Below are positions 3,848 to 57,690 of a stretch of DNA of 64,000 nucleotides, piece by piece. Under the pieces are notes generated by a model. That model ran no database searches. It was not told where the DNA came from and was given only the letters and a program-made list of their open reading frames with translations. Made by a program: the position numbers and the translations under genes. The stretch lies in contig RFHH01000164.1 in NCBI GenBank assembly GCA_003696075.1, positions 12,749 through 76,748 of the forward strand, written 5' to 3'. This DNA is from Acidobacteriota bacterium. Its GTDB lineage: Bacteria; Acidobacteriota; Polarisedimenticolia; J045. How positions within the stretch are numbered: the stretch's first letter is position 1; the number at the start of each line of letters is the position of its first letter.

Positions 3848-6703
3848 TCATCGCTTCTTCTTCTCCAGCTCGGCCAGCCCGCGCAGGATCTTCTCCGGCG
3901 TGATCGGCAGCGACGTCACCCTCACACCGGTCGCGTCGTAGATGGCGTTGGCGATCGCGGGGATCACGGGTAGCAGGCATCCCTCCCCGATCTCCTTGGC
4001 GCCGAAGGGCCCGCGCGGCTCGTAGCTCTCCACCGCCTTCGTCATGATCTTCGGGGTCTCGCAGATCGTCGGGACCAGATAATCGTGAAGGGTGGGATTG
4101 ATCAGCTCGCCCCGCTCGTCGGCCAGCGTGTCCTCGAGAAGGGTCTCTCCGAGGCCCATGACGATGCCGCCCTCGACCTGGCCGTGGAACGTGACCGGGT
4201 TGATCACGGTACCGGCGTCGCTGAAGTCGGTGAAACGGTCCACCTGGACGTAACCCGTCTCGAGGTCGACCGTCACTTCCGCCACCGCGGTGGAGAAACT
4301 GTAGGCCGGCGAGGTGCCGACGGTCCCGCCCTTGAAATCCCCGCCGAGGTTCTTCGGCGGTTGGTAGTAGCCGGTGCCCACCACCGGTCCGCTCTGGGAG
4401 AAGGCGATCCGGGCCGCCTCGGCCCATTCCATGCCGACGTCGGGGTGCTCCGCGACGAAGATCCGCCCGTTTCTCGCCACCAGCGCCCCGGGGTCGCAGC
4501 CAAGCTTCCGGCCGGCCACCTGCAGCAGCTTCCGGCGGACCTCGGCTGCCGCCATGCGGACGGCATTGCCACCCATCAGCGTGACGCGGCTCGAGTACGA
4601 GCCGAGATCCGTGGGGCTCAGGACCGAATCGCAGTCCACCAGCCATACCCGGTCGTACGGGATCCCGAGCTCCTCGGCGGCGATCTGCGTCAGGATGGTG
4701 TCGCAACCCTGGCCGATCTCGGCGGCCGCGATGTGAAGCGAGACCCCCGTGCCGTCCTCGTGGACGCGAATCATCGCGTTCGAGTGGGGGAAATCGGAGC
4801 GGTAGATCGGATACCCGGCACCGGAGACGAAACCGCCGCAGCCGACGCCGATTCCCTTTCCGCGCGGCAGCTTGCCCTTCTTCTCCCGCCAGCCGCTCGC
4901 CTCCCTCGCCCGTTCGAGGGTCGCCTTGAACTCGCAGGAGGAGATATCGAGCGCGTTGCAGGTGCGCGTGTTCGGCTCCATCGCGTTGCGCAGCCGGATC
5001 TCGAAGGGATCGAGCCCGAGATCCTCCGCGATCATGTCGAGGAGGCACTCGAACGCGAACCTCGGCTGCGGAACGCCGTGCCCGCGCATGGCCCCACTCG
5101 CGGGCAAGTTCGTGTAGACGCGGAACCCGTCGTACTTGAAATTCGGGATCTTGTACAGCGTCGGCAGCATCGAGCCGGCGTAGTAGGCGGTGATCACCCC
5201 GAACGACGTGTAGGCCCCTCCGTCGAGGATGGTCCGCGACTGGACGGCGGTGATCGTGCCGTCCTTCTTGACGCCGACCTTGAGATCGACGATCTGCTTG
5301 TGGCGCCCGCGGAAGTGGAGGAACATCTCCCTCCGCGAGTACTTCATCATCACGGGCCGGCCGGTTCTCTTCGCCAGAATCGCGGCGCAGAAGTCGAGCG
5401 GTGTCGTCTCCGCCTTCCCTCCGAAGCCGCCGCCCACCGCCGGCTTGATCACCCGGATGTCGCCTTTCGGCACCCCGAGAACGCGGGAGAGCATGTGCTG
5501 CACGTAGTGCGGCACCTGCGTCGCCGACCAGAGCGTCAGCTTGGAGCCGTGGTGTTCCCAGCGGGCGAGCGCCGCGTGCGGCTCGATCGGCGCCTGGTAG
5601 GTGCGGTTCCCGACGAACCTCTCCTCCCGGATGTGGTCGGCCTCGGCGAAGCCGCGCTCCACGTCGCCGAAGTGCCACTCCACCCGCGTGTTGATGTTCC
5701 GCGCGAACCGGGGGTTCTCCGGGTGGATCAGCGGGGCGTCGGGCTCCATCGCCTTCTCGGCGTCGAACACCGCCGGGAGCTCCTCGTACTCCACCTCGAT
5801 CAGCTCGAGGGCCCTCTCGGCCGTCTCCTCGTCGACGGCCGCCACGGCGGCGACCTCGTCGCCGACGTAACGGACACGGTCCTTGGCCAGAACGTGCTCG
5901 TCGTACCTCGCCGGGCTCACGCCGTAGGTCACGTCGGGGACGTCCGCGCCGGTGATCACGTCGACCACGCCGGGGAGCTCCCGCGCCCGGCTCGTGTCGA
6001 TACGCTTGATCAATCCGTGCGGGATGGGGCTGCCCAGGATCTTCCCGTAGAGCATCCCGGGCAGCCGGAGATCCGCCGTGTACTTCGCCCGCCCGGTGAC
6101 CTTGTCCGGCGCGTCGTAGCGCGGCACGCCCCGGCTGACCACCTCCAGATCGCGCTCCTGGTCGCGTTCCCGATCGTCGAGGGGCGCGGTGTCGAGCGGT
6201 TCCTTCGCGAACGAGCGCCAGTCCCGAACGGCCCGGATGATGCGCTCGTACGTGCCGCACCGGCACAGGTTGCCCGCGAGCGCCTCCCGGATCTCCTCCT
6301 CGCTCGGGTCGGGATTCCGGTCGATCAAGGCCTTCGCGGCCATGATCATCCCCGGCGTGCAGAAACCGCACTGAAGCGCACCGTGCTTGACGAATGCCTT
6401 CTGCAACGGGTGGAGATCGCCGCCCCGCGACAGGCCCTCGATCGTCACGACCTCCGATCCCTCGGCATCGGCGGCGAGGACCAGGCAGGAGGCGACCGGA
6501 TCGCCGTTCATCAGGACGGTGCACGCCCCGCAGTCGCCCATGCCGCACCCGTCCTTCGTCCCGGTGAGACCCAGCTCCTCCCTCAGGAGCTGCTGGAGCG
6601 TGGTGTTGGGCTTCACCGCGAGCGTGTGCGGCTGTCCGTTGACCGTCAGCGAGACCATCACCCGCCCGGTCGCCTGGCCCCCGTCCGTCGGACGAACGCT
6701 CAT
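3848..6703 (-). CDS. Xanthine-dehydrogenase-family molybdoenzyme subunit with an N-terminal [2Fe-2S] domain fused to the molybdopterin-binding large domain
   Basis: After MSVRPTDGG the protein has plant-type and four-helix 2Fe-2S motifs ([11 protein letters not shown]; CGFCTPGM; CRCGTY), then continues without a stop into an aldehyde-oxidase/CoxL-like Mo domain. The ATG at 6701-6703 overlaps the upstream gene's stop (ATGA). The upstream part of the 1399-aa track ORF is run-on in another gene's region. Confidence 0.85.
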
Positions 6704-7578
6704 CGTCCCGCCTCCACCGCCCGAGCCGACGCCTCCTCCAGCGCCCTCCGGGTGAGCACCTCCACCAGCCGCCGCCGGAATTCCGCCGAGCCGCGCACGT
6801 CGCAGATCGGCCGCGCCTCCTCCGCGGCGGCCCGCGCCGCCTTGGCGAAGATCTCCGGGCCGGGCCGCCCTCCCTCGAGTTCGCGCGCGGCGGCGCGGGC
6901 GAGCAGCGGCGTCGGGGCGACCGCACCGAGGGCGATGCGCGCGCCCGCGATCGTTCCCGAGGAGATCACCAGGCGGACGGCCACCGACGCCACGGCGACC
7001 GCCGAGCCTCGCCGGAGACCGAACCGCTGGAAGGACGCCCCCGCGCCCGCCGGCTGGGGCGGTATCCGGATCTCGGCGAGGATCTCGCCTTGCCGGAGAG
7101 CGGTCTGCCGCGGCCCGGTGAACAGATCCTCGGCGGGGATCTCCCGCGAGCCCTCCGGCCCGGCGATCCGCACCGAGGCCTCGCCCACCAGGCAGGGCGG
7201 CGGCGTGTCGGCACACGGGACCGCGCCGCAGAAGTTGCCGCCGATCGTCGCCCGGCTCCGGATCTGCTCGCTGCCGAGAAGCGCGGCGGCTTCGGCGAGC
7301 ACCGGGAACTGTTCGCGGACCAGAGGTGAGCGCGCCACGTCCCGGATCGTCGTCAGCGCGCCGATGACGAGCGTCCCGCTCTCGACGCGGATTCCGCGCA
7401 GCTCGTCGAGACGCGCGAGGGAGATGACATCGCTCGGCACCGGCTCGCCGGGCTTGCGCCGGACGAGAAGTTCCGTGCCCCCCGCCAGAACACGCGCCCG
7501 GTCGCCGAGTTCGCGCGCGAGTCTGCAGGCCTCGGCGAGACTCTCCGGGCGGTGGTAGCGCTCGATCGGCAACCGCAT
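6700..7578 (-). CDS. FAD-binding medium subunit (CoxM/XdhB-like) of the molybdoenzyme
   Basis: MRLPIERYHRPESLAEACRLARELGDRARVLAGGTELL is the canonical FAD-binding N-terminus of CO-dehydrogenase / xanthine-dehydrogenase medium subunits. The start is at the internal Met of the track ORF, and the stop overlaps the next gene's ATG. Confidence 0.85.
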   Translation of the reverse strand: MRLPIERYHRPESLAEACRLARELGDRARVLAGGTELLVRRKPGEPVPSDVISLARLDELRGIRVESGTLVIGALTTIRDVARSPLVREQFPVLAEAAALLGSEQIRSRATIGGNFCGAVPCADTPPPCLVGEASVRIAGPEGSREIPAEDLFTGPRQTALRQGEILAEIRIPPQPAGAGASFQRFGLRRGSAVAVASVAVRLVISSGTIAGARIALGAVAPTPLLARAAARELEGGRPGPEIFAKAARAAAEEARPICDVRGSAEFRRRLVEVLTRRALEEASARAVEAGR

Positions 7579-7767: not shown

Positions 7768-9816
7768 ATGAAAAAGCTGTGGCCCTTGGCGGCCGGGCTT
7801 TTCGGCCTGGGGTCGGCCGCGGTGTCGGCGCAGACCTATGTGGACGAAGCGCGGACCGTCGCCATCGACGTTCGCCGCGGGGCGGACGAACTGGTGGACT
7901 ACGCCGCCCTCGTGCGGATCGGCCCCTGGGACGACCGCAACTACGACCTGACGCGAGCCGACCTCGCGCTCCTTCCCCCGAACGAGGCGGAGCTGCGCTC
8001 GCCCATCCCCGCCTTCTTCCGGGTGGGATTGCGCCGTGCGCTTCCATCCCTAAGGGGCGATCCGGCGGCGCGCTACCCGCTGAGCGCGTTCAACGCCTTC
8101 CGCCTCAGGTTCGGCGGCTACCTCGTCGACGGCCGGCTCTACACCGAAGCCCACCGGAAAGGCGGCCGTTACTACGTGGTTCTCGAAAAGCCCGCGGCCG
8201 CCGGGCCCACGGGATCCGGGAACGACTTCGTCTCGGGCGACGTCCGGGTGACCTCCCCGGAGGGAGCAGCGGAGTCGGCGATCGCCGTGGATCCCGCCGA
8301 CACCAACCGACTCGTGGCCGGGACCAACGGGCCGAACGGTGGGCAACGCATGCACTACTCGACGGACGGGGGGGCGAGCTGGACACAGGTGGAGCTGCCG
8401 CAAGGCGGAACCTGCTGTGACCCCACCGTCGAGTGGTCTTCGGACGGGCGGTACGCCTACACCGCTACGCTCGGCGGCTGCTTCTTTTTCTGCCGCTTGT
8501 GGTTCTACCGCTCGGACGACGGCGGACTCACCTGGAACGGCCTCGAGAACGTGACGCCGGGGAACCCGCGCCGGGAGATCAGCAACAACGCCGACCGGGA
8601 ATACCTCCACGTCGACCGGTCGGCAGCGTCGCCCTACAAGGACAGCATCTACCTCATGTATCACGAGGGAAACGTGATGCAGTTCGCCCGATCGACCGAT
8701 TTCGGGAACACCTGGTCCACGCTGTCCTTTTCGAACGCGTCGGCCGACCGGGGCATCGCAGGGGACATCGCCACCGACCGCGGGGGAACGATCTACTACG
8801 CCTGGCCCGCCTTCAACAGCCGGACGATCCGCCTCCGCGTGTCGCACGACGGCGGGGCGACTTTCGGACCGGTATCGGTCGTCGCCGACACCAATGCCTC
8901 GTTCTCCTACCCGCTACCGTCGCAGGAGAGCCGCGAGGTCGCCGTCTACCTGGCGATGGATGCCGATACCTCGAGCGGACCCTACACCGACTCGGTCTAC
9001 ATCGCCTGGCCGGACACCACGGCGCCGCCCTCCGGCGTTCCTGCCGACAACCACTCGCAGATCCACGTCGCGTACTCGCGGGACGGTGGCGCCACCTGGC
9101 ACGAGTCGATCCCTCACGAGACGGCCGACGTGCTCACGGTCGACCGGTGGCAGCCATTCCTCGCGGTGGGTCCCGACGGCACCGTGCACGTGATCTACAA
9201 CGACACCCGGATCGGGGACCGGACCAGCTCCGATGTCTTCTACAGCTACTCCACGGACGGGGCTCGGACATGGTCCGCCCCCCGGCGCGTCACGGGGGCG
9301 ACCTCCCCCAACATCGCGGACGGCTTCGAGTTCGGCGACTACTCCGGACTCGACATCGTGATGAACGACTTGATCGCCATCTTCACCGACAACCGGAACG
9401 AGGCGGGCGGCGGGGGGGACTCCATCGACGTCTACGCCTCCGGGATCGCGCCGGGAGGTGGGGGTGGCGGCGCCGGCCGGATACCCGGCGCGCGGGGTGT
9501 CTCCGGAGGCGCCCCGCTCACGGTCGCCCGGAGCGGTGGGGACCTCCAGCTCGACTGGTCGCCCGCCTGCGGCGCCGGTTCCGACTACGGCGTCTACGAG
9601 GGGGAACTCGGCCTTCCAGACAGCGCCGCCCCCGTGCAGTGCACGACGGGAGGCCAGACCTCGGCCACGATCACGCCCTCGATGGGACAGCGGTTCTACC
9701 TCGTCGTGGCCCAGTCCGGTGGCAATGAGGGTTCCTACGGGCGCCGGAGCGACGACACCGAACGCCCACCCGCCGCGAACGCCTGCCTGCCCCAGGCCAT
9801 CGGCACCTGCCCGTAG
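7768..9816 (+). CDS. Secreted BNR/Asp-box repeat protein (sialidase / glycosyl-hydrolase-like) with a C-terminal Cys-containing domain
   Basis: The protein has a signal peptide (MKKLWPLAAGLFGLGSAAVSA) and at least five Asp-box repeats: STDGGASW, SDDGGLTW, SHDGGATF, SRDGGATW and STDGARTW. The C-terminal 100 aa are homologous to the C-terminus of the M23 protein at 13923-15452. Confidence 0.8.
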   Translation: MKKLWPLAAGLFGLGSAAVSAQTYVDEARTVAIDVRRGADELVDYAALVRIGPWDDRNYDLTRADLALLPPNEAELRSPIPAFFRVGLRRALPSLRGDPAARYPLSAFNAFRLRFGGYLVDGRLYTEAHRKGGRYYVVLEKPAAAGPTGSGNDFVSGDVRVTSPEGAAESAIAVDPADTNRLVAGTNGPNGGQRMHYSTDGGASWTQVELPQGGTCCDPTVEWSSDGRYAYTATLGGCFFFCRLWFYRSDDGGLTWNGLENVTPGNPRREISNNADREYLHVDRSAASPYKDSIYLMYHEGNVMQFARSTDFGNTWSTLSFSNASADRGIAGDIATDRGGTIYYAWPAFNSRTIRLRVSHDGGATFGPVSVVADTNASFSYPLPSQESREVAVYLAMDADTSSGPYTDSVYIAWPDTTAPPSGVPADNHSQIHVAYSRDGGATWHESIPHETADVLTVDRWQPFLAVGPDGTVHVIYNDTRIGDRTSSDVFYSYSTDGARTWSAPRRVTGATSPNIADGFEFGDYSGLDIVMNDLIAIFTDNRNEAGGGGDSIDVYASGIAPGGGGGGAGRIPGARGVSGGAPLTVARSGGDLQLDWSPACGAGSDYGVYEGELGLPDSAAPVQCTTGGQTSATITPSMGQRFYLVVAQSGGNEGSYGRRSDDTERPPAANACLPQAIGTCP

Positions 9817-12313: not shown

Positions 12314-12468
12314 GCCTCGATCGCCCCTTCGCGGCCCTCGTCCCGCGGATGCCGGCCGGGACCCGCCTCCCGTCGCCGCCGCCCGCCCCGCCCGGGGCCC
12401 GCGGGGTCAGGCTAGAACGCGGTCCCGGCGGGCGGCAAGCGCTCCGGGTGTCACACGGAATCGTGCCC

Positions 12469-13014
12469 ATGGCGACCAAGCGAACGGAGCTGGACGGGTG
12501 GACACCGATGCACTCTGACGCGCTGGCCGAGAGGTTGGAGGAACTCCACCCCGACAGCTTCGGCTGGGCCCTGAGCGTTTGCGGCGGGGATCCCGACCTC
12601 GCCGAGGAGGCGCTGCAGATGGCATACCTCAAGATCATCGAAGGCCGCGCGCGCTTCCACGGCCGGTCCAGCCTGAAGACGTGGCTGTTCGCGGTGATCC
12701 GCCACACGGCGCTGGACCTCCTCAGGCGGCGGGGCCGCGAGGCGGCCCGCCTGCGGCCGGTGGCCGCGGAGGCCCCGGGCCGCGGCGACCCGGAAGAGCA
12801 CGCCCTCGCCCGCGAGCGCTCCGATGCGATCCGGCGCGGTCTCGACCGGCTTTCCGACCGGCAGCGCGCCATCCTGCATCTGGTCTTCTACCAGGGGCTC
12901 ACCCTGGACGACGCGGCGCAGGTGCTGGGCATCTCCCCCGGCGCGGCACGCGTGCACTACGCGCGGGCCAAGGCTCGCCTCGCCGACCTGATTCCCTGCG
13001 AGGTGGCACGATGA
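12469..13014 (+). CDS. ECF (sigma-70 family) RNA polymerase sigma factor
   Basis: Region-2 and region-4 motifs are present (LQMAYLKI...TWLFAVIRHTALDLLRRR; LSDRQRAILHLVFYQGLTLDDAAQVLGISPGAARVHYARAK). The ATG at 12469 is an internal Met of the track ORF. Confidence 0.85.
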   Translation: MATKRTELDGWTPMHSDALAERLEELHPDSFGWALSVCGGDPDLAEEALQMAYLKIIEGRARFHGRSSLKTWLFAVIRHTALDLLRRRGREAARLRPVAAEAPGRGDPEEHALARERSDAIRRGLDRLSDRQRAILHLVFYQGLTLDDAAQVLGISPGAARVHYARAKARLADLIPCEVAR

Positions 13015-13444: not shown

Positions 13445-13915
13445 ATGAAGCGAACGCTCCTCGTCCTCACCGCCGCGCTGGCGCTGTCCGCGCCGGTGTT
13501 CGCCTTCCCGGGAGGCCCCGGACCGCACGGCGGCCCGCACGGGATGATGGGACCGCACGGTCCCGGAATCGAGCGGTTCCTGTTCCCTCCCGAGATGGTG
13601 CTCCAGAACCAGATCGCGCTCGGCCTGACCGACGAGCAGCTCGAGGCGATCAAGAAGATGATCAACGAGACCCACTCCCAGGTGCTCGACTATCAGACCG
13701 AACTCCAGCGGCTCAGCGAGCAGCTCCGGGGGATCCTCGATTCCCCGACGGTCGACGAAGCCGCAGCGCTCGAGACGGCGGGCCGGGCGATGCAGCTCGA
13801 GTCCGAGGTGAAAAAGGCGCATCTGTCGCTGGCCATCAGGATCAAGAATCTCCTGACGCCCGAGCAGCAGGAGAAGCTGCGCGCGATGCGGAAGCCGCCG
13901 CACCCGGAGCGGTAG
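13445..13915 (+). CDS. Periplasmic Spy/CpxP-like (LTxxQ-motif) stress protein
   Basis: The gene has a strong Shine-Dalgarno sequence (AAGGAAAGGAGG) and a signal peptide (MKRTLLVLTAALALSAPVFA), and the protein contains the motifs LTDEQLEAIKKM and LLTPEQQEKLRAM. Confidence 0.7.
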   Translation: MKRTLLVLTAALALSAPVFAFPGGPGPHGGPHGMMGPHGPGIERFLFPPEMVLQNQIALGLTDEQLEAIKKMINETHSQVLDYQTELQRLSEQLRGILDSPTVDEAAALETAGRAMQLESEVKKAHLSLAIRIKNLLTPEQQEKLRAMRKPPHPER

Positions 13916-13922
13916 GATCCCG

Positions 13923-15452
13923 GTGACGGTCCGTTCCGGTTCCGGACTGCTGTTCGCCGCGGCGGTCCTCTTGGGGCCGGCGGCCGCCCTCCCCGCGGCC
14001 GCCGGCCCGTCTTCGTTCCGCCTTCTCTGCGGGCGCCCGCCGGACGGCCACAGCGGGGGCAGCGACGGGCCGGCCGCTCCGCTCGAACCGCTCGACCCGG
14101 CGGAGAGGACGCGGTTCGAGGAACGGGTCCGGAGAAACGTCGCGCGCCTGCGCGCCGAGGGACGCCTCGAGGCGGCGTCGGCCGGCCAACCGGTCCTCTT
14201 CTCCTGGCCGCTGGCGCTCGCCCGCGGACTCTCCGACCCCGGCTACCACGGCGTTTCGGGGTTCGTGGACCACGATCCGTCTTTCCCCGATGCCCTGTTG
14301 GACTACGAATGCGGAGACAGGACCTACGACACCGCGGGCGGCTACAACCACCGCGGGACCGATTACTTTCCGTCTCCGCACGGCTGGTACAAGATGGAGC
14401 ACGAGCATGTGCTCGTGGTTGCAGCGGCGGACGGCCAGATCGTCGTCCGCGAGGACGGCCACGAGGACCACAACTGCCAGGGAGGCGGCACCTGGAACGC
14501 GATCGTGCTCCGCCATGCGGACGGCAGCGAGAGCTGGTACGGACACCTGAAGAAGGGGTCTCTCACGCCAAAGCAGGTCGGGGGTACGGTCGCGGAGGGG
14601 GAGTATCTGGGGGTCATCGGCAGTTCGGGCAACTCCAGCGGTCCTCACCTCCACTTCGAGGTCCACGATTCGACCGGGAAGGTCGTCGATCCTTACTCAG
14701 GTCCCTGCAACAACGCGCCATCGCGCTGGCAGGACCAGCGCCCGTACGACGACTCGGCACTCAACAAGATCACCACTGGTGATGCCGCGCCGGAAAAGCC
14801 GCCGTGCCCGGGCGTCGAGAACCCCCACGCCCGGGCGACGTTCCCCATCCCGGCGACCATCTACTTCACCGCCTACTACCGGGATCAGCTCGCGGGGCAG
14901 GTCTCCCACTACACCATCCGCCGTCCCGACGGCAGCGTCTTCGCCGAGTGGGATCACAGCAGCCCCGCCCCTCACCTCGCGTCCTCTCACTGGACCTGGT
15001 TCTGGCATATCGGCACCGACGAGCCCGCGGGACGCTGGCGCTTCGAGGTGACCTATCTCGGGAGGACGCTCGCGCGCGAGTTCGTCCGCGGTAGCCCTGT
15101 CGCGAGCGGCCGTGTCCCCCAATTCCCGGTCCAGGGAGCGCTGCTGGAGGTTTCGCGCGCCGCCGGCGGCCGGCTGAGACTGACCTGGGGACCCTCCTGC
15201 GTCGCCTCCGACGACGACTTCGCCGTCTATGAGGGCCGGCTTGGCGATTTCCAAAGCCACCGGCCGGTCCTGTGCAGCACGGGCGGTCAGCGGAGCGCCT
15301 CGATCACTCCCGCCCTCGGGTCGACCTACTACCTCGTCGCTCCCCGCAACGCCGAACGGGAGGGGTCGCTGGGAGTCACCGGGGATGAGACACCGCGCGC
15401 GGAGGGGGCCGGCCGTTGCCTGCCGCGCGACGTGATTGCGTGTCCCTATTGA
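13923..15452 (+). CDS. Secreted M23-family (LytM-like) metallopeptidase with a C-terminal Cys-containing domain
   Basis: The gene starts with GTG and encodes a signal peptide. M23 motifs are present (HRGTDYF...; GVIGSSGNSSGPHLHFEVHD). The C-terminal 105 aa are homologous to the C-terminus of the BNR protein. Confidence 0.8.
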   Translation: MTVRSGSGLLFAAAVLLGPAAALPAAAGPSSFRLLCGRPPDGHSGGSDGPAAPLEPLDPAERTRFEERVRRNVARLRAEGRLEAASAGQPVLFSWPLALARGLSDPGYHGVSGFVDHDPSFPDALLDYECGDRTYDTAGGYNHRGTDYFPSPHGWYKMEHEHVLVVAAADGQIVVREDGHEDHNCQGGGTWNAIVLRHADGSESWYGHLKKGSLTPKQVGGTVAEGEYLGVIGSSGNSSGPHLHFEVHDSTGKVVDPYSGPCNNAPSRWQDQRPYDDSALNKITTGDAAPEKPPCPGVENPHARATFPIPATIYFTAYYRDQLAGQVSHYTIRRPDGSVFAEWDHSSPAPHLASSHWTWFWHIGTDEPAGRWRFEVTYLGRTLAREFVRGSPVASGRVPQFPVQGALLEVSRAAGGRLRLTWGPSCVASDDDFAVYEGRLGDFQSHRPVLCSTGGQRSASITPALGSTYYLVAPRNAEREGSLGVTGDETPRAEGAGRCLPRDVIACPY

Positions 15453-15500: not shown

Positions 15501-17711
15501 TCAGCGGTGGGAGGTGAAGCTGACGACGTCCACCGGGCCGAAGCGGTCGCCCGGCGACAGCGGCTCGGAGCAGGAGGTGTGGATGCGCACCTCGCCGAGC
15601 ACCTCTCCGGTCGCCGCAATGCTCACCCGGAACACGAGATCGCCGGGCAGGCGCTTCTTGTGCTTCTTCTCGCGCTTGCGCTTCTCCGGCTTGTTCGCGC
15701 TCTCGGGCTTCGGCGGCACGTCGTAGTAGTGGACCGTGACCTGGTCCCCGATCATCACGTTGGGCTGCTCGAGGATCACCCGTCCCTTCTTGTCGAGCAC
15801 CGTGATCTGCACGCCGTCGGTGAACAGCGCGTCACCCTCGCAGACCACCTTGCCGTTCTGGTCCTGTGTCATCGTGGTGCAGGGCTCGCCGGTGTAGGCA
15901 ACGGTGATGTCCTCGAGCCCGTCCTCGCAGAACTGCCCCTCGAGCGCATCGTCCTCGTCCGGCACGACGGGCGGCGGCAGGAAGGTCTGCGTGACGGTCC
16001 CCGTCGCCTGGCAGTCCGCCGAGCCGTCGGCCACCGCGTCGTAGGTCTGGGTCTTCCAGGTCGTCGCCGTGTGGGTGAGGACCGCCTGCTCGCCGGGAGC
16101 GAGATTGCTGATGCGTCCCACCTCGCCGAACAGGTCGTCGGTCACCACCACCTCGCCGGAATCGGCGGTGCCGTTGTTCGTCACCGTGTAGGTCAGCGTG
16201 GTCGTCGTCTCGAGCGTCGACGTCGTGCCGGACATGGAGGTGAAGCCGACGAGCAGGAAGCTGCCGAACTGGTCGCCGAGGACCAGCTCGTCGTCGCACT
16301 CGGTCTTCGCCTCGACCGTCTCCAGCAGCTCGCCGGTATCCGGATCGATCACCCGCCACTCGACCTTGCCCAGCCGGTCGAGACCGGCCTCGGCGGCGTT
16401 GAAGGTGAGGAGGTCACCCAGCATGACGTTCGAGCGGGTGCCGATCAGGGCACCGTTCTTCTGGTAGAGCTCGACGGTGACCGGCTCCCGGAACTGTGCG
16501 TTGCCGCTGCACTTCGCATCGAACGCCTGCTGGTGCTCGCTGGCGATGCAACCCTGGCCGGTGTACTCGACGCGGACCTCCTGGAGCGGGCCGTCGCAGT
16601 CGACGACCGGCGGCGCCGGAACCTCGAGCGGATCGACCGACATGTCCATCGCGAGCTCGCAGGTTCCCGTGGTCGGCGTGCCGGTGCCGCACGCGCGGTC
16701 GTACTCGAGCGTGGCCGCGAACGTCACGAAGTTCTGGGCGAACTCGTTGGTCCGCATCTTCGGCAGCATCTCGTGCTGGAAGCAGGCGTGGGTGCTGCCC
16801 TGGGTCAGCGGCACATTGGCGGAAAAGATGCCGATCTGCATTCCCCGGAAGCCGAACTGGCTGTTCGTGAACTTGTTCGCCTCGAGAAGCTGGGTGGTGC
16901 CCAGCAGCGAGGCCGGCGGGGTCGTGGAGGTCGTCGTGAACCAGGTCTGCTCCGGCGAGCCGTAGGCGATCCGGGTCGTGCCCGGCACCGGGTGGACGTC
17001 CTCCATGACCCCGCCCGCGGCGATGCTGAGGATTCCGACCTGATCGCAAGCGAGCGGCTGGAAGTCGAAGCAGATCACCTCGCTGTGAGTCTGGTCCTGG
17101 TAACCGGGCATCCGGTAGTAGCGATCGTAGTTCGAGATGTCCGCCCCCTCGAGCGCGATCACCTCCCGGTCCCCGACTCCTGCGGGCACCTGGTAGGCGA
17201 CCACCATCGCCACACCGTACTGCTGGCGGTAGATGCGGAGCAGAGTGGTCGGATCGCGTTCGTTGAAGTTGCTGATGACGAAGACGTTCACGCCCTGCTG
17301 GAACGCATACACCGGCACGTCCGCCTTCATGACGACCTCACCGGCGGTGTTCGTCTCGTCGGCGAAGACGGTGTAGCGCCGGCCGACCTCGTAGCCGTAC
17401 AGATCCTCCGGCTGCACGAGCGCCCCCCCGGAAAGGGTGACCGCCGGATCGACGGCCCCGGTCTCCCGGGTACTCCCGGCCCAGTACAGCCAGGCGGCGA
17501 GCGGCTCGCCGGGCACGTTGATCTCGAAGACGTGATCCCCTTCCTGCGTGCCGACCCCCGAGACCGCGACGTGGACCTCCCCGCCCGCGAGACGGTAGAA
17601 CTCGGTCAGGGGAGTGTCGAAGGAGCCGGACGGCGGCGGCACGGTGGCGAACGCCGCCGGACCCACGGTCAGGGCCAGCGCGACGGTACCGGCAAATATG
17701 CGATGACGCAT
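15501..17711 (-). CDS. Large secreted repeat protein with a DUF11-like domain
   Basis: The Met at 17709-17711 is preceded by GGAGGGAGG and followed by a signal peptide (MRHRIFAGTVALALTVGPAAFA). A DUF11-like motif (TLTYTVTNNGTADSGEVVVTDDL) and internal YTG..C repeats are present. The C-terminus has a Lys-rich patch (KPEKRKREKKHKKR). Confidence 0.75.
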   Translation of the reverse strand: MRHRIFAGTVALALTVGPAAFATVPPPSGSFDTPLTEFYRLAGGEVHVAVSGVGTQEGDHVFEINVPGEPLAAWLYWAGSTRETGAVDPAVTLSGGALVQPEDLYGYEVGRRYTVFADETNTAGEVVMKADVPVYAFQQGVNVFVISNFNERDPTTLLRIYRQQYGVAMVVAYQVPAGVGDREVIALEGADISNYDRYYRMPGYQDQTHSEVICFDFQPLACDQVGILSIAAGGVMEDVHPVPGTTRIAYGSPEQTWFTTTSTTPPASLLGTTQLLEANKFTNSQFGFRGMQIGIFSANVPLTQGSTHACFQHEMLPKMRTNEFAQNFVTFAATLEYDRACGTGTPTTGTCELAMDMSVDPLEVPAPPVVDCDGPLQEVRVEYTGQGCIASEHQQAFDAKCSGNAQFREPVTVELYQKNGALIGTRSNVMLGDLLTFNAAEAGLDRLGKVEWRVIDPDTGELLETVEAKTECDDELVLGDQFGSFLLVGFTSMSGTTSTLETTTTLTYTVTNNGTADSGEVVVTDDLFGEVGRISNLAPGEQAVLTHTATTWKTQTYDAVADGSADCQATGTVTQTFLPPPVVPDEDDALEGQFCEDGLEDITVAYTGEPCTTMTQDQNGKVVCEGDALFTDGVQITVLDKKGRVILEQPNVMIGDQVTVHYYDVPPKPESANKPEKRKREKKHKKRLPGDLVFRVSIAATGEVLGEVRIHTSCSEPLSPGDRFGPVDVVSFTSHR

Positions 17712-18034
17712 CAACCCTCCTCCCTCCGGCGGGGATGGCGTGGATGCGCAAGCATCTCGCGCCGCCCGCGGGTGGCGGCTTGAGCCCGACTCCACCTTCC
17801 CGGGAAAAGCCCCTCCGAACGGGCTAGGTACCCCGTCGGCAGCAGAATGCAACAGGAATTTCCCGCCCGGCGGAGGGCGGTCCGGCCGGGCGGTCCCCGG
17901 CCGGAGCGCGGCGAAAGAATCCGGACTATCTCGGACCCGGGAGGCCGCGATACAATGGGCGCCGCGAAGGGGAAGGCCCGAACGGCAGACATGGGCGCTT
18001 CCCGCGAGGACGCCCCTACTAAAGGAGAAGGATC

Positions 18035-27140: not shown

Positions 27141-28354
27141 CCGCCGCCCGACAGCCGCTCGGCAGCGCGCGCGACGGCGGCGTGGCCGGCGGCCCGAGGA
27201 GCGAGGGCGTCGTAGATGGCGGCGAGGGCCCTGGTCTGCCGCTCCGGATCGAACTCGCGCGACAGACGTTCCCGGGCGCGTTCCGCGCGCCGCTGCGCCT
27301 CCGCCGGCGATCGCAGGGCCTGCTCGATCGCCCCCGCGAGCGCCTCCGGATCGTCGGGGGGGACCGTCCACCCGGTTTCCCCGTCCACGACCGCTTCGGG
27401 GACCCCCCCGACCTCGGTGGCCACCACCGGGGTTCCCACGCGGAACGCCTCCAGGATCACGTTCGGCAGCCCCTCGCTTCGGGAGGGATTCACCAGCAGG
27501 TCGGCACCCGCGATCCAGCGGGGAAGCTCGTGTCGGAACCCGGCGAGCCGAACCGAGTCGGCGAGCCGCTCGCGCCGAATGAGCCGCTCCAGGCGGCGGC
27601 GCCGCGCCCCTTCCCCGAGAATCGCCGCGAGGACCGGCCTTCCCCGTTCCCGCAGGTGCGCGACGGCGCGAACCAACACGTCCTGTCCCTTCTCGGGGCT
27701 CAGCCGTCCCGCGGCGATCAACACCGGCCGCGGATCTCCTTCCCATCCCAGCGCTCGCCGCACGTCGATCGGGGCACCGAAGCCGTCTTCCCGGACGTCG
27801 GCGTTTCGGACCACGCAGATGCGCTCCGCCCGTACGCCGATCCGCAACGCCAGCCGCCGCATCGCCTCCGATACCGCCACGACCCGGTCCGCCCGCCGGA
27901 GCGACCAGCGGTAGGCGCGCTCGTACAACCTCACCTTGAGATTCTCGCCGGTGAGGCCGCGGAGGAAGGCGATGCGCGGTATCCCGACCTTCGCCGCCGC
28001 GAGGTGCCCGTAGATGTCCGCCTTGTAGCCGTGGGTCGCGAGGACCTCGACGCGCATCTCGCTCAGGAAACGGGCCAACTGGCGCGCATTGTCGGGGCTG
28101 AACGGCGAGGCGGTATCGACGAGGAACGCCGGCCGCCCGCGTTCTCGGGCCCTTTCGACGATCTCGACCGCCGGCCGGCCCTCCCTGAACGAGCCGATCA
28201 CCGCCTCCCAGCCGTAGCGGCCGAGACGCGCGGCGTGCCCCAGGATCTGCCTCTCCGGACCGCCGAAGAAATTGCTGGCGATCAGGTGCGCGACGCGCCT
28301 CCGCGCAGGAGGGGTCTGTGGGCCGGGGCGCGCGGGCGAACGACGTCGCGTCAT
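27137..28354 (-). CDS. GT4-family glycosyltransferase
   Basis: The motif SRSEGLPNVILEAFRVGTPVVATEVGGVPEAVVDGETGWTV is characteristic of GT4. The start was chosen at MTRRRS. Confidence 0.8.
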   Translation of the reverse strand: MTRRRSPARPGPQTPPARRRVAHLIASNFFGGPERQILGHAARLGRYGWEAVIGSFREGRPAVEIVERARERGRPAFLVDTASPFSPDNARQLARFLSEMRVEVLATHGYKADIYGHLAAAKVGIPRIAFLRGLTGENLKVRLYERAYRWSLRRADRVVAVSEAMRRLALRIGVRAERICVVRNADVREDGFGAPIDVRRALGWEGDPRPVLIAAGRLSPEKGQDVLVRAVAHLRERGRPVLAAILGEGARRRRLERLIRRERLADSVRLAGFRHELPRWIAGADLLVNPSRSEGLPNVILEAFRVGTPVVATEVGGVPEAVVDGETGWTVPPDDPEALAGAIEQALRSPAEAQRRAERARERLSREFDPERQTRALAAIYDALAPRAAGHAAVARAAERLSGGG

Positions 28355-29343
28355 GGCGCCGCCGTCCCCGCTGCGGCCCAGCCGGGAACGAGGGCGTTCC
28401 CTCGGACGCTGTACACGGCGAGGTGGCGGCTCTCGGGAGAGGCGAGCCACTCGCCGATCGGCATCGCTCTCAGCACCGAGAGCAGAGCATCCAGCCTTGT
28501 CTCCATGCGGGAGAGATTACGGTAGTGGCGCACGCGCGTCACCGGCCCGACGGGCAACCGCGGCTGCCCCGGATCGAGTTCCCACGGGTGAAGGTAGAGG
28601 ACGGCGGGTCGCCGGTGCGCCCGGGTCATTCGCCGCAGGCCCCATCGGACGAGGACGAACGGGAGATGCCGCCAGTAGGCGCCCCCGGCGAGAGGAATCC
28701 GCAGCCTCCCCACGCGCAGGGTCGCGGGCGGCAGCTCGAGCAGGTCTCCCCCCGGCGTCAGGGCCACGAACGGCTCGGTGGGGGCCGCGGGAAGGCGGCA
28801 CCGGCGATAGACCGGAAAGATGCTGGAATCGTAGCGGAAGCCGTGCGCGGCGAGAACCTCCAGAGCCCAGAGGTTTTCCTTCCCGATCGAGAAGGACGGC
28901 GCGCGGTAGCCGGCCGGCCTCGCGCCGCAAGCCGATCCGATCGCTTCCACCGCGAGGGCGGTGTCCTCCGCGAACCGTTCCGGATCGAGGGAATCGACCC
29001 GCCGGTGGTGGTAGGAGTGGCACGCGATTTCGTGACCGGCCTCGGCGATTTCGCGCACGAGATCGGGGTAGCGGTCGGCGATCCACCCCAGGACGAACCA
29101 TGTGGCCCGCGCTTCGTGGCGCGCCAGGATTTCCAGGAGCTTGCGGACGTTGCGCGCCACCCGGGCCGGATACCACTCCCAGTCATCGCGCTGGACGATG
29201 GACCGGAACGCCTCGACCTGGAAGTAGTCCTCGAGATCGATCGAGAGAAGAGCCGGCGCGGCCGCGTTGCCGTCCAGGACTCCCGCCGGCCGGGGCCGCC
29301 CGCTGTCCCGCGACGCCTGCAGACCAGCCGGGTCGAGCTCCAC
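28351..29343 (-). CDS. Polysaccharide deacetylase, XrtA/PEP-CTERM-locus-associated subfamily (DUF3473-like)
   Basis: The motifs LLSIDLEDYFQVEAF...ATWFVLGWIADRYPDLVREIAEAGHEIACHSYHHRRV define this deacetylase subfamily. A GTG start at 29341-29343 lies 6 nt after GGAGG. Confidence 0.75.
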   Translation of the reverse strand: MELDPAGLQASRDSGRPRPAGVLDGNAAAPALLSIDLEDYFQVEAFRSIVQRDDWEWYPARVARNVRKLLEILARHEARATWFVLGWIADRYPDLVREIAEAGHEIACHSYHHRRVDSLDPERFAEDTALAVEAIGSACGARPAGYRAPSFSIGKENLWALEVLAAHGFRYDSSIFPVYRRCRLPAAPTEPFVALTPGGDLLELPPATLRVGRLRIPLAGGAYWRHLPFVLVRWGLRRMTRAHRRPAVLYLHPWELDPGQPRLPVGPVTRVRHYRNLSRMETRLDALLSVLRAMPIGEWLASPESRHLAVYSVRGNALVPGWAAAGTAAP

Positions 29344-41029: not shown

Positions 41030-42801
41030 AGGGAAGCGCGGTGGACGGTGGCGGTGGAGGCGCGGACGTCCTCCTCACGGTGGCCGTCGAGGAGTACTTC
41101 CAGGTCCAGGCCCTGCGCGCTTACATCCCGGCCAGCCGGTGGGATCGCTTCGAGTCGCGCGTCCGGCGCAACACCGAGAGAACCCTCGAACTCCTCGAAT
41201 CGGTGGGTGCCACGGCGACGTTTTTCGTCTCGGGATGGATCGCGGAGCGGCATCCGGCCGTCGTCCGCGAGGTCGCGGAGGCAGGCCACGAGGTAGCGTG
41301 CCTCGGGTACGATCACCGTCCCCTGCGGGAATTCGACGCCGCAGGCTTCCGCGCCGACGTCCGGAAGGGGAAGGCCGCCGTCGAGCAGGCGTCCGGTCGG
41401 GAGGCCATCGGCTACCGAATCCCCCACGGTTGGTTCGGCCCTGCGGACCTCTGGGCGCTCGACATCCTCGCCGAGGAGGGATTCCTCTACGACTCCAGCC
41501 TGTGCCCGGCGTTCAGGCGGTTCGCGGACGAGCCCTGGCGGCGCTTCATCCACGCCATCGAGCGGGGAGAAAGGCGCCTGATCGAGGTCCCGCCCGGAAC
41601 GGTCCGGCTCGCCGGCTTGGACTGGCCGATCGCCGGGGGCAACTACCTGCGCCAACTGCCGCGCGCCTGGCTGCGCTTCGGGATGGCCGCCTGGCGGCGT
41701 TCCACGACACAGCCCTTCGTGATGTACTTCCATGTCTGGGACCTCGACCCCGACCAGCCGCGCATCACCGCCGCGGGCTGGCTGCCCCGCCTGCGCCAGT
41801 ACCGGAACCTGCACCGCATGCGGGACTTTCTGCAACGGCACCTGGAAGGCGCCACGGCCACGAGCATCGCGGAGCACCTGCGCATGGCCGCCGGACGCCG
41901 CACCTTCGCCGAGCCCGCGGCCAGGCCGGCGGCCCGGCCCGCCGCGGCGGCGCGGGAAGAACGCCCGGCCGAGCGGGTCACGGTGGTGGTGCCCTGCTAC
42001 AACGAGGAGGCGGTCCTCCCTTACCTCGCCCAGACCCTCGCCAGCGTTCGGAAGGCCTACCGCGGCCGGTACCGGTTGTCCTTCGTCTTCGTCGACGACG
42101 CCAGCACCGATCGCACCTGGGAGGTTCTGCAGTCGCTCTTCGGCGGGAGCGACGACTGCCGGCTCCTCCGGCACGACACCAACCGCGGCGTCGCGGCCGC
42201 GGTGCTCACCGGGTTGCGCAACGCGGACACCGAACTGGTCGTGTCGATCGATTGCGACTGCAGTTACGATCCGCACGAGATCGGGCGCCTTCTCGATCGC
42301 CTGCGCCCCGGCGTGGCCCTGGTCACCGCCTCCCCGTATCACCTCCTGGGCGAAGTGCGGAACGTCCCGGGCTGGCGGCTCTTCCTGTCGCGGTCGCTGT
42401 CGCGCCTGTACCGGGCGCTGTTCCGGCAGAAACTGCACACCTACACCAGCTGTTTCAGGGCCTACAGGAGGTCGCTGGTCCTTCCGCTGGAACTCGAGCG
42501 GGGGGACTTCATGGGCATGACCGAGATGTTGGTGCGTCTCGATCTGCGGGGCGCCCGACTCGCCGAGGTGCCGGCGGTCCTCGAAGCGCGCCTGCTGGGA
42601 CACTCGAAGCTGCGCGCGCTCCCGACGATCCTGCGCCATCTGGCGCTCCTGGCCCAGTTGGTCTGGTGGAAACTGACACGCCGCGCCGGCAAGGGACCCG
42701 CTCCCGGCGGCGAGGCCGAGGAGATTTCCTATGAGCGAAGCGAGCCCGCCCCCACGGGTGCTCCCGAGCGACCAGAACGCCAGCGGAAGGTCGTTCGGTG
42801 A
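41026..42801 (+). CDS. Fusion protein: XrtA-type polysaccharide deacetylase (DUF3473-like) N-terminal domain plus GT2 glycosyltransferase C-terminal domain
   Basis: The N-terminal domain (LLTVAVEEYFQVQALRAY...ATFFVSGWIAERHPAVVREVAEAGHEVACLGYDH) is paralogous to 28351-29343. The C-terminal domain (VTVVVPCYNEE...VFVDDASTDRT...SIDCDCSYDP) is DPM1-like GT2. ATGA overlaps wecB. Confidence 0.75.
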   Translation: MKGSAVDGGGGGADVLLTVAVEEYFQVQALRAYIPASRWDRFESRVRRNTERTLELLESVGATATFFVSGWIAERHPAVVREVAEAGHEVACLGYDHRPLREFDAAGFRADVRKGKAAVEQASGREAIGYRIPHGWFGPADLWALDILAEEGFLYDSSLCPAFRRFADEPWRRFIHAIERGERRLIEVPPGTVRLAGLDWPIAGGNYLRQLPRAWLRFGMAAWRRSTTQPFVMYFHVWDLDPDQPRITAAGWLPRLRQYRNLHRMRDFLQRHLEGATATSIAEHLRMAAGRRTFAEPAARPAARPAAAAREERPAERVTVVVPCYNEEAVLPYLAQTLASVRKAYRGRYRLSFVFVDDASTDRTWEVLQSLFGGSDDCRLLRHDTNRGVAAAVLTGLRNADTELVVSIDCDCSYDPHEIGRLLDRLRPGVALVTASPYHLLGEVRNVPGWRLFLSRSLSRLYRALFRQKLHTYTSCFRAYRRSLVLPLELERGDFMGMTEMLVRLDLRGARLAEVPAVLEARLLGHSKLRALPTILRHLALLAQLVWWKLTRRAGKGPAPGGEAEEISYERSEPAPTGAPERPERQRKVVR

Positions 42802-55401: not shown

Positions 55402-57690
55402 TCACGAACGCGCGGTCGCCGGACTCATCTGCGCGGCGACGAGGCGCGGGTAGATCCTCCCGTGCGCGAGCAGCTCGGCGTGCGTTCCGGTCTCCGCGAT
55501 CCGCCCGCGCTCGAGGACGACGATCCGGTCGGCATCGGCGACCGTGCTCAGCCGGTGGGCGATGACGATCTGCGTGACCCTCATCGATCTCAGGCGGTCG
55601 ACGACCGCGCGCTCGCCGAGCGCGTCGAGTTCGCTCGTCGCCTCGTCGAGGACGACGAGCGCCGGGCGGCGCGCGAAGACGCGGGCCAGCGCGAGCCGCT
55701 GGCGCTGCCCTCCGGAGAGCGACCGGCCGCCGTCCGGGAGCACGGTGTCGTAGCCGAGCGGCAGCGCGGCGATCTCCTCGTGGATCCCGGCGAGGCGAGC
55801 CGCCTCCACGATCCGCTCGCGCGTGCAGCGCGGATCGCCGAGCGAGACGTTGGCCGCCACCGAGGCGGCGAAGACGTAGGGGCGCTGGGGAACGATCCCC
55901 ATGCGCTGGCGGAGCGCGCCGGGGTCGAACGCTCTGCGGGGAACGCCGTCGTAGAGGATCTCGCCCTCCACGGGGTCCAGCAGACCGACGACGAGCCGGG
56001 CCAGCGTCGTCTTCCCGGCACCGGAGCGCCCGACGATCGCCACTCGCTCCCCGGGCCGGATCGCCAGGGAAACATCCCGGAGAACCCACGGCTCTCGCTC
56101 CCCGTAGCGGAAGGAAACCCGGCGGAGTTCCACGCCGCCCCGCAGCACGGGCGGCGCCGCAGACGGCGCCGGGCTCGAGTCGGCGGGAGTTTCGAGCACT
56201 TCGGCGATCCGCTCGGTGTGGCTGCGCAACCGCGCCAAGGAGAGACCGGTCGCGAGCATCCCGGCCAGCGGGGCGAGAAAGCCTCCCGCCAGCATCGACA
56301 GCGCCAGCATCGTCCCGACGGAGAGCCGTCCGTCGAGGACGGCCACGCCTGCCCCTCCGAGGACGGCCGCCGGCGCCGCCTGGCGAACGAGCAGCCCTGC
56401 GGCCTCGACCCAGGATTCCAGGCGGCCGCGCGCGAGCGCGGCGTTCAGCTCCTCGGCGTAGCGCTGCGCCCAGCTCCGGACGGCCTCACTCTCCGCGCCG
56501 AGCGCCTTGAGCGTTTCCATCCCCGCGAGCATCTCCACGAGCTCCCCCTGCTCCCGGGCGCGGCTTTCGAGTTCCGACGCGGCCAGTTCCCGCTCGCGCC
56601 GGCGCGACGCCGCGAGGAGCACCGCCTGCGCCGCCCCGGCCGAGAGCGCGATCGCCCCCGCGGGCGGCCAGATCCAGGCGAGCGCCGCCAGGTGGACCGC
56701 GGCGAACAGGGCGTCGAGCAGGCCGGAGAGGACGGCGCCGGTCAGCGCATCCCGCACGACGCGATTGCTCGCGAGGCGGGTGAGCAGGTCTCCCGAAGAG
56801 TGGGCCAGAAAGAAGGCGTACGGGAGGCGGGCCAGGTGCTCGACGAACGCGGTCGACAGCCGTTCCTCGAGGAGCGTGCGCAGGGCGACCAGCGCGCGCC
56901 CGCGGGCCAGCGTCGCCAGCGCCGATCCCGCGGCGACGCCCAGCAATCCCGCGACGAAGGCGACGAGGACGGCGCTCTTCGCCCCCGGCGCGATCCTGTC
57001 GACGAGGCTCCCCGTCAGCAGCGGAACCGCGAGCGCACCGAGCTGGACGGCGAGCGTGAGAGCGAGGCAGACCGCGACCCTCCCCTTGTGTCTCCAGAGG
57101 AGCGGGAGCAGCCAGTGACGCCGCCGAGACGAGGGAACGGCCGCCGGGCACGGGCGCGGCTCGAAGACCAGTGCCACCCCTGTGAACTCGCGGCGGAGGA
57201 GCTCGCGCGAGACCTTCCGCCGGCCGAACGAGGGATCGACGACGACGGCGCCGCGCCGGGTGGCCCGCTCGAAGACGACGAAGTGGTCGAATCCCCAGTG
57301 CAGGATCGACCCCGGGGGGAGGAAGCGAAGATCGCCCAGCGACAGCCGGAGGCCGCGGCCCGACAGGCCCCAGCGTTCCGCCGCGTCCACGATGTCGCGC
57401 GCCGTCGCGCCGCCCGCGCTCCGGCCCAGAGCGGCCCGCACGGTGCCAAGAGGGACGCGGCGCCCGTGCGCGGCGAGGACCATCGCCAGGCAGGCGGCGG
57501 CGCAGTCCGACTCCGAAAAGCCGGCGACGAAGGGGATCCGGCGGCGGCGGAAACGGCGCACCCGGACCGGCTCGCCGTAGCGTCCGCGCCGCGCGTGGTG
57601 GCGCAGCGCCTCCGCGCGGAACAGGGCCCGGCGGCCCGCTCTCGTCCCGTTTCCCCCGGCGCGGGCGCCCGTCTCCGGTCCGGTGCTCAT
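55402..57690 (-). CDS. lanT: Peptidase-C39-domain ABC transporter (bacteriocin / lanthipeptide processing exporter)
   Basis: An N-terminal C39 domain with catalytic Cys (FSESDCAAACLAMVLA) is followed by six transmembrane helices and an ABC ATPase with Walker A (GRSGAGKTT), signature (LSGGQRQR) and Walker B (LVVLDEATS) motifs. ATGA overlap with the lanB stop. Confidence 0.9.
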   Translation of the reverse strand: MSTGPETGARAGGNGTRAGRRALFRAEALRHHARRGRYGEPVRVRRFRRRRIPFVAGFSESDCAAACLAMVLAAHGRRVPLGTVRAALGRSAGGATARDIVDAAERWGLSGRGLRLSLGDLRFLPPGSILHWGFDHFVVFERATRRGAVVVDPSFGRRKVSRELLRREFTGVALVFEPRPCPAAVPSSRRRHWLLPLLWRHKGRVAVCLALTLAVQLGALAVPLLTGSLVDRIAPGAKSAVLVAFVAGLLGVAAGSALATLARGRALVALRTLLEERLSTAFVEHLARLPYAFFLAHSSGDLLTRLASNRVVRDALTGAVLSGLLDALFAAVHLAALAWIWPPAGAIALSAGAAQAVLLAASRRRERELAASELESRAREQGELVEMLAGMETLKALGAESEAVRSWAQRYAEELNAALARGRLESWVEAAGLLVRQAAPAAVLGGAGVAVLDGRLSVGTMLALSMLAGGFLAPLAGMLATGLSLARLRSHTERIAEVLETPADSSPAPSAAPPVLRGGVELRRVSFRYGEREPWVLRDVSLAIRPGERVAIVGRSGAGKTTLARLVVGLLDPVEGEILYDGVPRRAFDPGALRQRMGIVPQRPYVFAASVAANVSLGDPRCTRERIVEAARLAGIHEEIAALPLGYDTVLPDGGRSLSGGQRQRLALARVFARRPALVVLDEATSELDALGERAVVDRLRSMRVTQIVIAHRLSTVADADRIVVLERGRIAETGTHAELLAHGRIYPRLVAAQMSPATARS

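Follow-up and report, generated by a model that had tools for sequence, protein, structure and literature searches.

In a window of 64,000 nucleotides from an Acidobacteriota bacterium (contig RFHH01000164.1, positions 12,749 to 76,748 of the forward strand), two genes coding for unrelated exported proteins end in the same domain of about 115 residues. This C-terminal domain, called here the module, belongs to an unmodelled, lineage-restricted and Cys-stapled family with a fixed terminal position, inside the fibronectin type III (FN3) superfamily whose fold is already known. The module could be a swappable localisation or retention module which binds a common partner, a reading that we favour tentatively and at slightly less than even probability.

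The carriers are a BNR/sialidase-like protein of 682 aa and an M23 metallopeptidase of 509 aa, both recognised in the initial annotation and confirmed by the open reading frames (ORFs) and by Pfam. The protein of RMG43926.1 matches BNR_2 (2.6e-16) as well as Sortilin-Vps10 and BNR repeats. An identity of about 45% had been announced for the two tails; by BLASTP, 50 of 104 residues are identical (48%, E 3e-29), and the four Cys and the motifs described for them are present in both. Upstream of the module, the 568 residues of the BNR protein and the 393 residues of the M23 protein are dissimilar (best E 0.34). A resemblance of this kind between the tails is far too strong to be due to chance. 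The segments first delimited are real, but their starts (9480 and 15130) were out of frame and the in-frame bodies occupy 9508-9813 and 15135-15449. The length of about 100 aa given to them is that of the body, whereas a conserved lead-in (AGRIPGA in the BNR copy, SGRVPQF in the M23 copy) pushes the start to 9472 and 15102, respectively. Both carriers have a signal peptide, as judged by eye from the translations. The window, with a G+C content of 71.7%, contains exactly two copies of the module by tblastn and by a six-frame scan with a hidden Markov model, and the public records RMG43926.1 and RMG43932.1 leave the tail unannotated. The features of the two genes are as follows.

7768..9816, + strand: gene of the BNR/sialidase-like exported protein, 682 aa (ORF; RMG43926.1, "exo-alpha-sialidase"), with the module at the C-terminus
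7768..7830, + strand: predicted Sec signal peptide of the BNR protein, MKKLWPLAAGLFGLGSAAVSA followed by Q (by eye: basic N-region, hydrophobic core, A-x-A)
8257..9294, + strand: BNR/sialidase-like beta-propeller passenger (Pfam matches at aa ~164-509; orthologue alignments stop at aa ~560)
9472..9507, + strand: module lead-in of the BNR copy, A-G-R-I-P-G-A-R-G-V-S-G, after a Gly6 linker (family alignment)
9508..9741, + strand: FN3-type beta-sandwich core of the BNR copy, module residues 1-78 (Cys codons 9568-9570 and 9640-9642)
9742..9813, + strand: C-terminal tail of the BNR copy, module residues 79-102, ...ERP...C-LPQAIGT-C-P-stop (Cys 9784-9786 and 9808-9810; stop 9814-9816)
13923..15452, + strand: gene of the M23 metallopeptidase, 509 aa, with the second module copy (ORF; RMG43932.1, "M23 family metallopeptidase")
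14412..14693, + strand: Peptidase_M23 catalytic domain, aa 164-257 (Pfam PF01551, 6.6e-17)
15102..15134, + strand: module lead-in of the M23 copy, A-S-G-R-V-P-Q-F-P-V-Q (family alignment, extended model)
15135..15374, + strand: FN3-type core of the M23 copy (Cys 15198-15200 and 15273-15275)
15375..15449, + strand: C-terminal tail of the M23 copy, ...PRAEGAGR-C-LPRDVIA-C-P-Y-stop (Cys 15417-15419 and 15441-15443; stop 15450-15452)

Fold and conservation of the module

The predicted structure of the module is a seven-stranded beta-sandwich with FN3 topology. The AlphaFold2 model obtained from a 54-sequence alignment contains six to seven strands, with a predicted local distance difference test score (pLDDT) of 88.3 and a predicted template modelling score (pTM) of 0.81. 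In the structure comparison, all the top 60 matches were FN3 domains, the best of them including the Clostridium thermocellum CtXyl5A Fn3 (PDB 5g56) and the Fn3-like protein 3mpc. An extended model of the M23 copy including the lead-in (pLDDT 89.6, about 80 in the lead-in) shows isolated beta-bridges in the lead-in and in the tail. Of the 102 residues of the first model the templates account for 73-77, and in the extended model for 79-94 out of 127; as they stop short, the lead-in and the tail of about 25 residues are without precedent in the template library.

The relationship was also found at the profile level. By HHalign, the module profile aligns through its columns 9-71 with the repeats of P0046, a protein detected in the family search described below (94.5% probability, E 7.8e-8), and these repeats score 2.9e-19 on the Pfam fn3 model (PF00041), so that the body of the module is a divergent FN3 domain. 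PF00041 itself gave no match, even at E<=10, with four family members and both full proteins, and searches of Pfam, NCBIfam and PDB sequences with the module returned no matches, permissive thresholds included. A DUF5633 match (E 0.2) was discarded as noise. In agreement with the initial annotation, which had placed the segment in no named sorting-signal family, the models of PEP-CTERM, of the C-terminal domain (CTD) of type IX secretion systems (T9SS) and of LPXTG in Pfam and NCBIfam did not match. The module is a separate, unmodelled family inside the FN3 superfamily and outside the curated Pfam fn3 family. The novelty first proposed for it therefore holds with respect to the databases and does not extend to the body. 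What is specific to the family lies in the Cys, the lead-in and the tail, the FN3 fold being ordinary. Compared with bacterial FN3 domains (PF00041; CtXyl5A 5g56, 3mpc), the module has four invariant Cys, whereas typical repeats such as those of P0046 have none, and it is distinguished further by the additional lead-in, the Cys-loop tail of about 25 residues, the almost constant place as last domain, the fixed terminus and the restriction to one lineage. A lineage-specific C-terminal conservation (four Cys, lead-in, tail, fixed terminus) is thus present despite the FN3 relationship.

In 141 aligned modules, W17, C21, G32, C45, E74, G75, C93 and C101 are invariant (100%), and L4, L15, S20, D24, D26, Y30, E31, G35, H40, T47, G49, P57, Y63, Y64, L65, V66, V67, P68, S76, G78 and R86 are conserved at 90% or more; about 30 positions of this alignment exceed 90%. 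In the tail, R86, C93, Q96 and C101 are invariant or nearly so. A larger set of 247 aligned modules shows practically no exception to the four Cys, the apparent "CCC-" cases being due to alignment trimming. The lead-in, located about 10 residues upstream, reads [P/A]-A(74%)-G(98%)-x-[V/I](88%)-P(75%)-D-G in 177 sequences. The M23 copy is nearer to the family consensus and contains D24, F37 and H40. The FN3 topology and the strands of the model place the conserved FG loop E74-G-S-Y-G78 at one pole, together with the BC loop, which contains C21, and the C'E loop, which contains C45. In the standard FN3 topology, the BC, C'E and FG loops form the usual binding face.

The end of the protein is tightly constrained. 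The last two Cys are separated by exactly seven residues (C-x7-C) in 222 of 252 members, and one residue follows the last Cys in 200 of the 252 (79%), a Pro in 118. The distance between module and protein end is at most 4 residues in 142 of 152 proteins, and a stop codon occurs 0-4 codons after the module in all 29 copies taken from the window and from the 27 genome loci presented below. The last 40 residues show no basic cluster and a low hydropathy (maximal Kyte-Doolittle value over 15 aa: mean 0.49, peak 1.60).

Family, passengers and exchange of the module

The family was revealed by an exhaustive HMMER search with a four-sequence profile against 1.84 billion cluster representatives; a word-index protein search with two sequences had given two fragments only. 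The matches amount to 2,481 at E<=1e-3, 1,554 at E<=1e-10 and 193 at E<=1e-30, which extends the occurrence of the module far beyond the two proteins of the window, to at least 193 cluster representatives at the last threshold. The high-ranking match P0046 was considered as a tandem array of the module and rejected: it is a Cys-free array of ordinary fn3 repeats, whose score is summed over 11 weak repeats. Its presence indicates that the low-scoring part of the list is probably contaminated, and about 190 clusters are a safe minimum of the family size and 2,481 its upper bound. The public names of the family members are all "hypothetical protein", no precomputed Pfam domain spans the module, and searches of the literature library gave no description of it.

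One genome per species was scanned with a narrow peptide pattern derived from the four-sequence alignment. The 27 loci detected are nearly all from Acidobacteriota, namely strain Mor1 (subdivision 22), Polarisedimenticolaceae, "gp22" metagenome-assembled genomes (MAGs) and unclassified Acidobacteriota MAGs; the exceptions are one Gemmatimonadota-labelled contig and one Terriglobia-labelled MAG with two loci. The protein clusters that carry the module belong, almost without exception, to genomes of Acidobacteriota of the subdivision-22/Polarisedimenticolia type. The pattern gave 6 loci in MAG Bpl_9 and 3 in Mor1 and, as it catches 11.5% of the family members, these numbers extrapolate to tens of copies per genome, roughly 50 and 25, respectively, which are estimates and not counts. 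The copies are scattered, usually one per 12 kb locus. Their mean identity is 53% between paralogues of one genome and 50% between genomes; paralogues being no closer than cross-genome copies, the conservation reflects long-standing purifying selection and not recent copying. An exception was observed in Mor1 (CP011806.1), where two modules located about 1.2 Mb apart (L001 6004-6306 and L002 6004-6306) are 100% identical in protein and belong to ORF segments of different length (783 vs 878 aa). For this pair, a duplication or a gene conversion of recent date is indicated, in a paralogue family that is otherwise old.

The module is carried by a wide variety of proteins. Ninety-nine full-length carriers match 56 different Pfam families, FG-GAP being the commonest. 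The passengers include SBBP, NHL/teneurin-like and SGL propellers, sulfatases, Laminin_G_3, subtilases (Peptidase_S8), M23 and M64 peptidases, PKD, di-haem peroxidase and arylsulfotransferase, and the fact that they share no substrate argues against a substrate-specific role. By a crude test, at least 47 of 81 full-length carriers have a signal peptide.

The exchange of the module was analysed by searching with the BNR passenger alone. In the best 120 orthologues the passenger ends at a constant point (query residue ~560), and the part that follows varies:

68 of 120: the module
about 20 of 120: a Cys-rich extension of ~235 aa ending in ...CCSNxCxGxxKTC
about 12 of 120: choice-of-anchor J (NF038128, above cutoff) and a terminal DGFESGxxSxW motif
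10 of 120: nothing
several of 120: a DNRLRE domain (NF033679)
1 of 120: a classical signal made of a Cys, a transmembrane (TM) helix and KKK (P0335)

The presence of these alternatives at the same point indicates that the module is dispensable and exchangeable, in a slot shared with appendages of the surface-protein type. Choice-of-anchor J and DNRLRE, which occupy this slot after the same passenger, have no sequence kinship to the module.

Several of the orthologues deserve a description of their own. The Cys-rich extension (P0266, P0270, P0272 and ~17 others) is knottin-like, with the pattern ...C-x3-5-CCSN-x-C-x-G-x2-4-K-T-C-[RKQ] and no NCBIfam match, and appears to be a further C-terminal module, likewise unannotated, that uses this slot. 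The motif [IF]-[FA]-x-D-G-F-E-S-G-[DN]-x-S-x-W closes P0354, P0316, P0327, P0339, P0342, P0347, P0349, P0365 and others after choice-of-anchor J; in P0337, P0345 and P0348 the same motif follows the passenger directly, and it is perhaps an independent, short C-terminal signal. In P0315, a Cys-rich spacer is followed by a divergent form of the module with four Cys, EGSYG...ERP and the end C-x8-C-D. The end of P0312 is an FN3-like segment of another kind (...GYNVYRS...YYQVTAYNSVCGAEGPR). These two proteins suggest that the C-terminal FN3 variants of these lineages are more diverse. PF26952.1 is precomputed on all 120 BNR orthologues, although it was not reported in the Pfam scan of the window protein, made with a release which seems older than that of the precomputed set; its presence on the module-less orthologues assigns it to the passenger and not to the module.

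Possible roles of the module

The confinement of the identity to the module, the constraint on its Cys, its terminal position, the diversity of its passengers, the swaps, the signal peptides and the multiplicity of copies are in agreement with a localisation or retention function. For such a function, the following scheme may be proposed. The module, connected through flexible linkers with a large number of unrelated passengers, would be exported with them by Sec, and its disulfides would form in the periplasm. It would then bind one common partner via the conserved loop face, the fixed C-terminus or both, the candidates being a cell-envelope component, a matrix component or a surface receptor. 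The tagged proteins would in this way be held at, or delivered to, one common place.

Several observations weigh against this scheme. Neither the 27 loci nor the window revealed a partner, a receptor or a processing enzyme, and no neighbouring gene recurs across these loci. A gene for a dedicated sortase or exosortase, envisaged in the initial annotation, is absent from the 64 kb window. M23 peptidases and some other passengers could work in the periplasm, and a location at the surface is only a possibility. The genes found upstream of the M23 gene bear on this point: an ECF (extracytoplasmic function) sigma factor gene (12349-13014, +) is followed by the gene of a LTXXQ/Metal_resist periplasmic protein (about 13445-13915, +), and the M23 gene starts 8 nt past the latter. 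Between the gene of the sigma factor and that of LTXXQ, an unassigned interval could code for an anti-sigma factor. The whole is reminiscent of an operon for envelope stress, and on that reading the M23 protein may act in the periplasm. FN3 modules of bacterial enzymes are often plain spacers or stabilisers, and a part of the conservation may do no more than keep the tail attached to the sandwich. Natural Cys-loss variants, from which the disulfide pairing might have been deduced, were sought and not found among the 247 modules; C21-C45 plus C93-C101 is a topological guess, and a body-to-tail pairing is equally possible. Finally, the BNR copy of the window and the whole subgroup of BNR orthologues are devoid of D24, F37 and H40, which are more than 85% conserved in the wider family, so that a binding site built on this trio is not universal. 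The same subgroup retains D26, E74, R86, Q96 and all four Cys and constitutes a distinct subtype. As the three residues appear to have been lost jointly, a single structural or functional unit is suggested for them in the main family; a metal site made of them was rejected as universal functional core, the trio being missing in the whole subgroup.

In a more specific and rather unlikely form of the localisation hypothesis, the module would be the address tag of an undescribed sorting or surface-attachment system of the subdivision-22/Polarisedimenticolia-type Acidobacteriota. Recognition would take place through the loops stapled by disulfides and through the fixed C-terminus, with a possible processing at A-G-x-V-P-D-G, and the tag would serve tens of exoproteins per genome, as an acidobacterial counterpart in function to the T9SS CTD or dockerin. 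Type I dockerins would resemble it as a conserved C-terminal module present on many enzymes and bound, in the proposed model, by one common receptor. They are however Ca-binding helical EF-hand pairs, whereas the module is predicted to be all-beta, and no gene for a cohesin-like scaffold was found.

The module might alternatively be a cleavable cargo tag, a functional equivalent of the T9SS CTD: the folded module would be recognised by an outer-membrane translocon or an attachment enzyme and removed at the A-G-x-V-P-D-G lead-in, the protein being transported or covalently attached. The probability of this explanation is low. Like the T9SS CTD (Por_Secre_tail/TIGR04183), the module is a beta-sandwich of about 100 aa, strictly C-terminal, swappable and present in many copies per genome on unrelated exoproteins. 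The near-invariant Gly (98%) and the V/I-P that precede the fold could be a processing site, and the free C-terminus is set at one residue past the last Cys in 79% of the members. On the other hand, the lead-in is modelled as a part of the fold, with a pLDDT of about 80 and a beta-bridge, and not as a free loop. Por_Secre_tail, TIGR04183 and the type B models of Pfam and NCBIfam do not match the module. The top 60 structural matches, all FN3, include no T9SS CTD structure, and the module has presumed disulfide-forming Cys. The machinery genes (PorU/PorV/SprA and others) are neither found in the window nor recurrent at the 27 loci. The conservation of the module, about 50% in pairwise identity, would be much higher than that usual in T9SS CTDs. 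T9SS is not known from Acidobacteriota.

A third explanation, for which we see a small probability, makes the module a relative in function of the carbohydrate-binding modules (CBMs), that is, an FN3 variant binding an environmental polymer (polysaccharide or detrital matrix) and concentrating the enzyme on its substrate. The cellulosomal CtXyl5A Fn3 and 3mpc are among its best structural matches, some passengers are glycan-active (BNR/sialidase-like, sulfatases, GH114-associated), and conserved residues are found in the three loops which are usually the binding face of FN3. The passengers however act on chemically unrelated substrates (M23 on peptidoglycan, subtilases and M64 on proteins, di-haem peroxidase) or are non-enzymes such as the FG-GAP and NHL propellers. 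A position confined to the last residue, as in the module, is unusual for CBMs as for FN3 spacers; no CBM model of Pfam or NCBIfam matched, and an aromatic platform of the CBM type is not demonstrated.

That the module is a structural cap only, a disulfide-stabilised FN3 which shields the C-terminus from proteolysis or aids folding and has no specific partner, seems improbable to us. Members of the bacterial FN3 superfamily are often stable spacers, the four invariant Cys and the packed tail suggest a selection for stability, and 10 of the 120 orthologues lack any appendage. In a simple cap, however, there would be no use for a terminus set at one residue, nor for about 30 near-invariant positions across old paralogues, many of them polar or charged (D26, E31, E74, R86, Q96). 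Some of the other appendages of the slot belong to families whose annotation is that of domains of surface proteins.

A classical tripartite sorting signal (PEP-CTERM/exosortase, LPXTG/sortase, MYXO-CTERM/myxosortase and relatives) is scarcely credible and is refuted by the architecture of the module: although an exosortase system may exist in the genome, according to the XrtA-system polysaccharide deacetylase above the curated cutoff and to weak matches of the PEP-CTERM-locus type in the window, and although the BNR orthologue P0335 bears such an end, the module is a folded domain of 100 aa terminated by C-x-COOH, with no hydrophobic stretch, no basic cluster, no match to the sorting-signal models of NCBIfam and Pfam and no exosortase gene within 64 kb. 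The module shares with the short Cys-containing signals a C-terminal position, an invariant Cys, dozens of occurrences per genome and lineage specificity. According to one report, the known signals of this kind all consist of a motif, a TM segment and an Arg cluster and are cleaved by intramembrane proteases (10.1101/2023.06.07.544157), whereas the module is a soluble folded domain devoid of hydrophobic segment.

The Acidobacteriota that carry the module are abundant in sediments and soils, almost uncultured, and thought to degrade polymers with secreted enzymes. As it tags a large share of the exported proteins, the module offers a handle for exoproteome prediction. It is a candidate for a new curated domain family, the databases being blank and the records named after the passenger, and a starting point for finding an anchoring or sorting partner. 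If this partner is a dedicated machinery, a new protein-sorting system would be added to a major phylum; if the module is only a stabilising FN3 cap, it would represent a routine gap in domain annotation.

Neighbouring genes and other loci of the window

The BNR gene is immediately preceded by oppositely oriented CoxL/CoxS/CoxM-type molybdenum hydroxylase genes (3848-7578, -) of the xanthine dehydrogenase/CO dehydrogenase family, with FAD_binding_5 and CO_deh_flav_C matches. The gene convergent with that of the M23 protein (15501-17852, -) codes for an exported protein of 783 aa containing two DUF7467 (3.6e-38) and CARDB.

A large exopolysaccharide biosynthesis locus extends from 22801 to 51558. 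Several glycosyltransferases of the GT4 and GT2 families are encoded there, together with the XrtA-system polysaccharide deacetylase cited above (28351-29343), which scores 315.9 bits against an NCBIfam cutoff of 276.2; a second copy of the deacetylase is fused to a GT2 (41041-42801). The locus also codes for a FemAB-like GNAT, a Wzy_C/PEP_O_lig_1-like protein, an HfsF-like flippase, WecB, an aminotransferase and a NeuD-like acetyltransferase.

A probable gene cluster for a ribosomally synthesised and post-translationally modified peptide is located at 55402-60902 (-). It comprises a dehydratase-like protein of 1,071 aa with the thiopeptide-type bacteriocin biosynthesis domain TIGR03891 (169 bits, cutoff 48) and an adjoining peptidase-containing ABC exporter similar to the NHLP/bacteriocin exporters.

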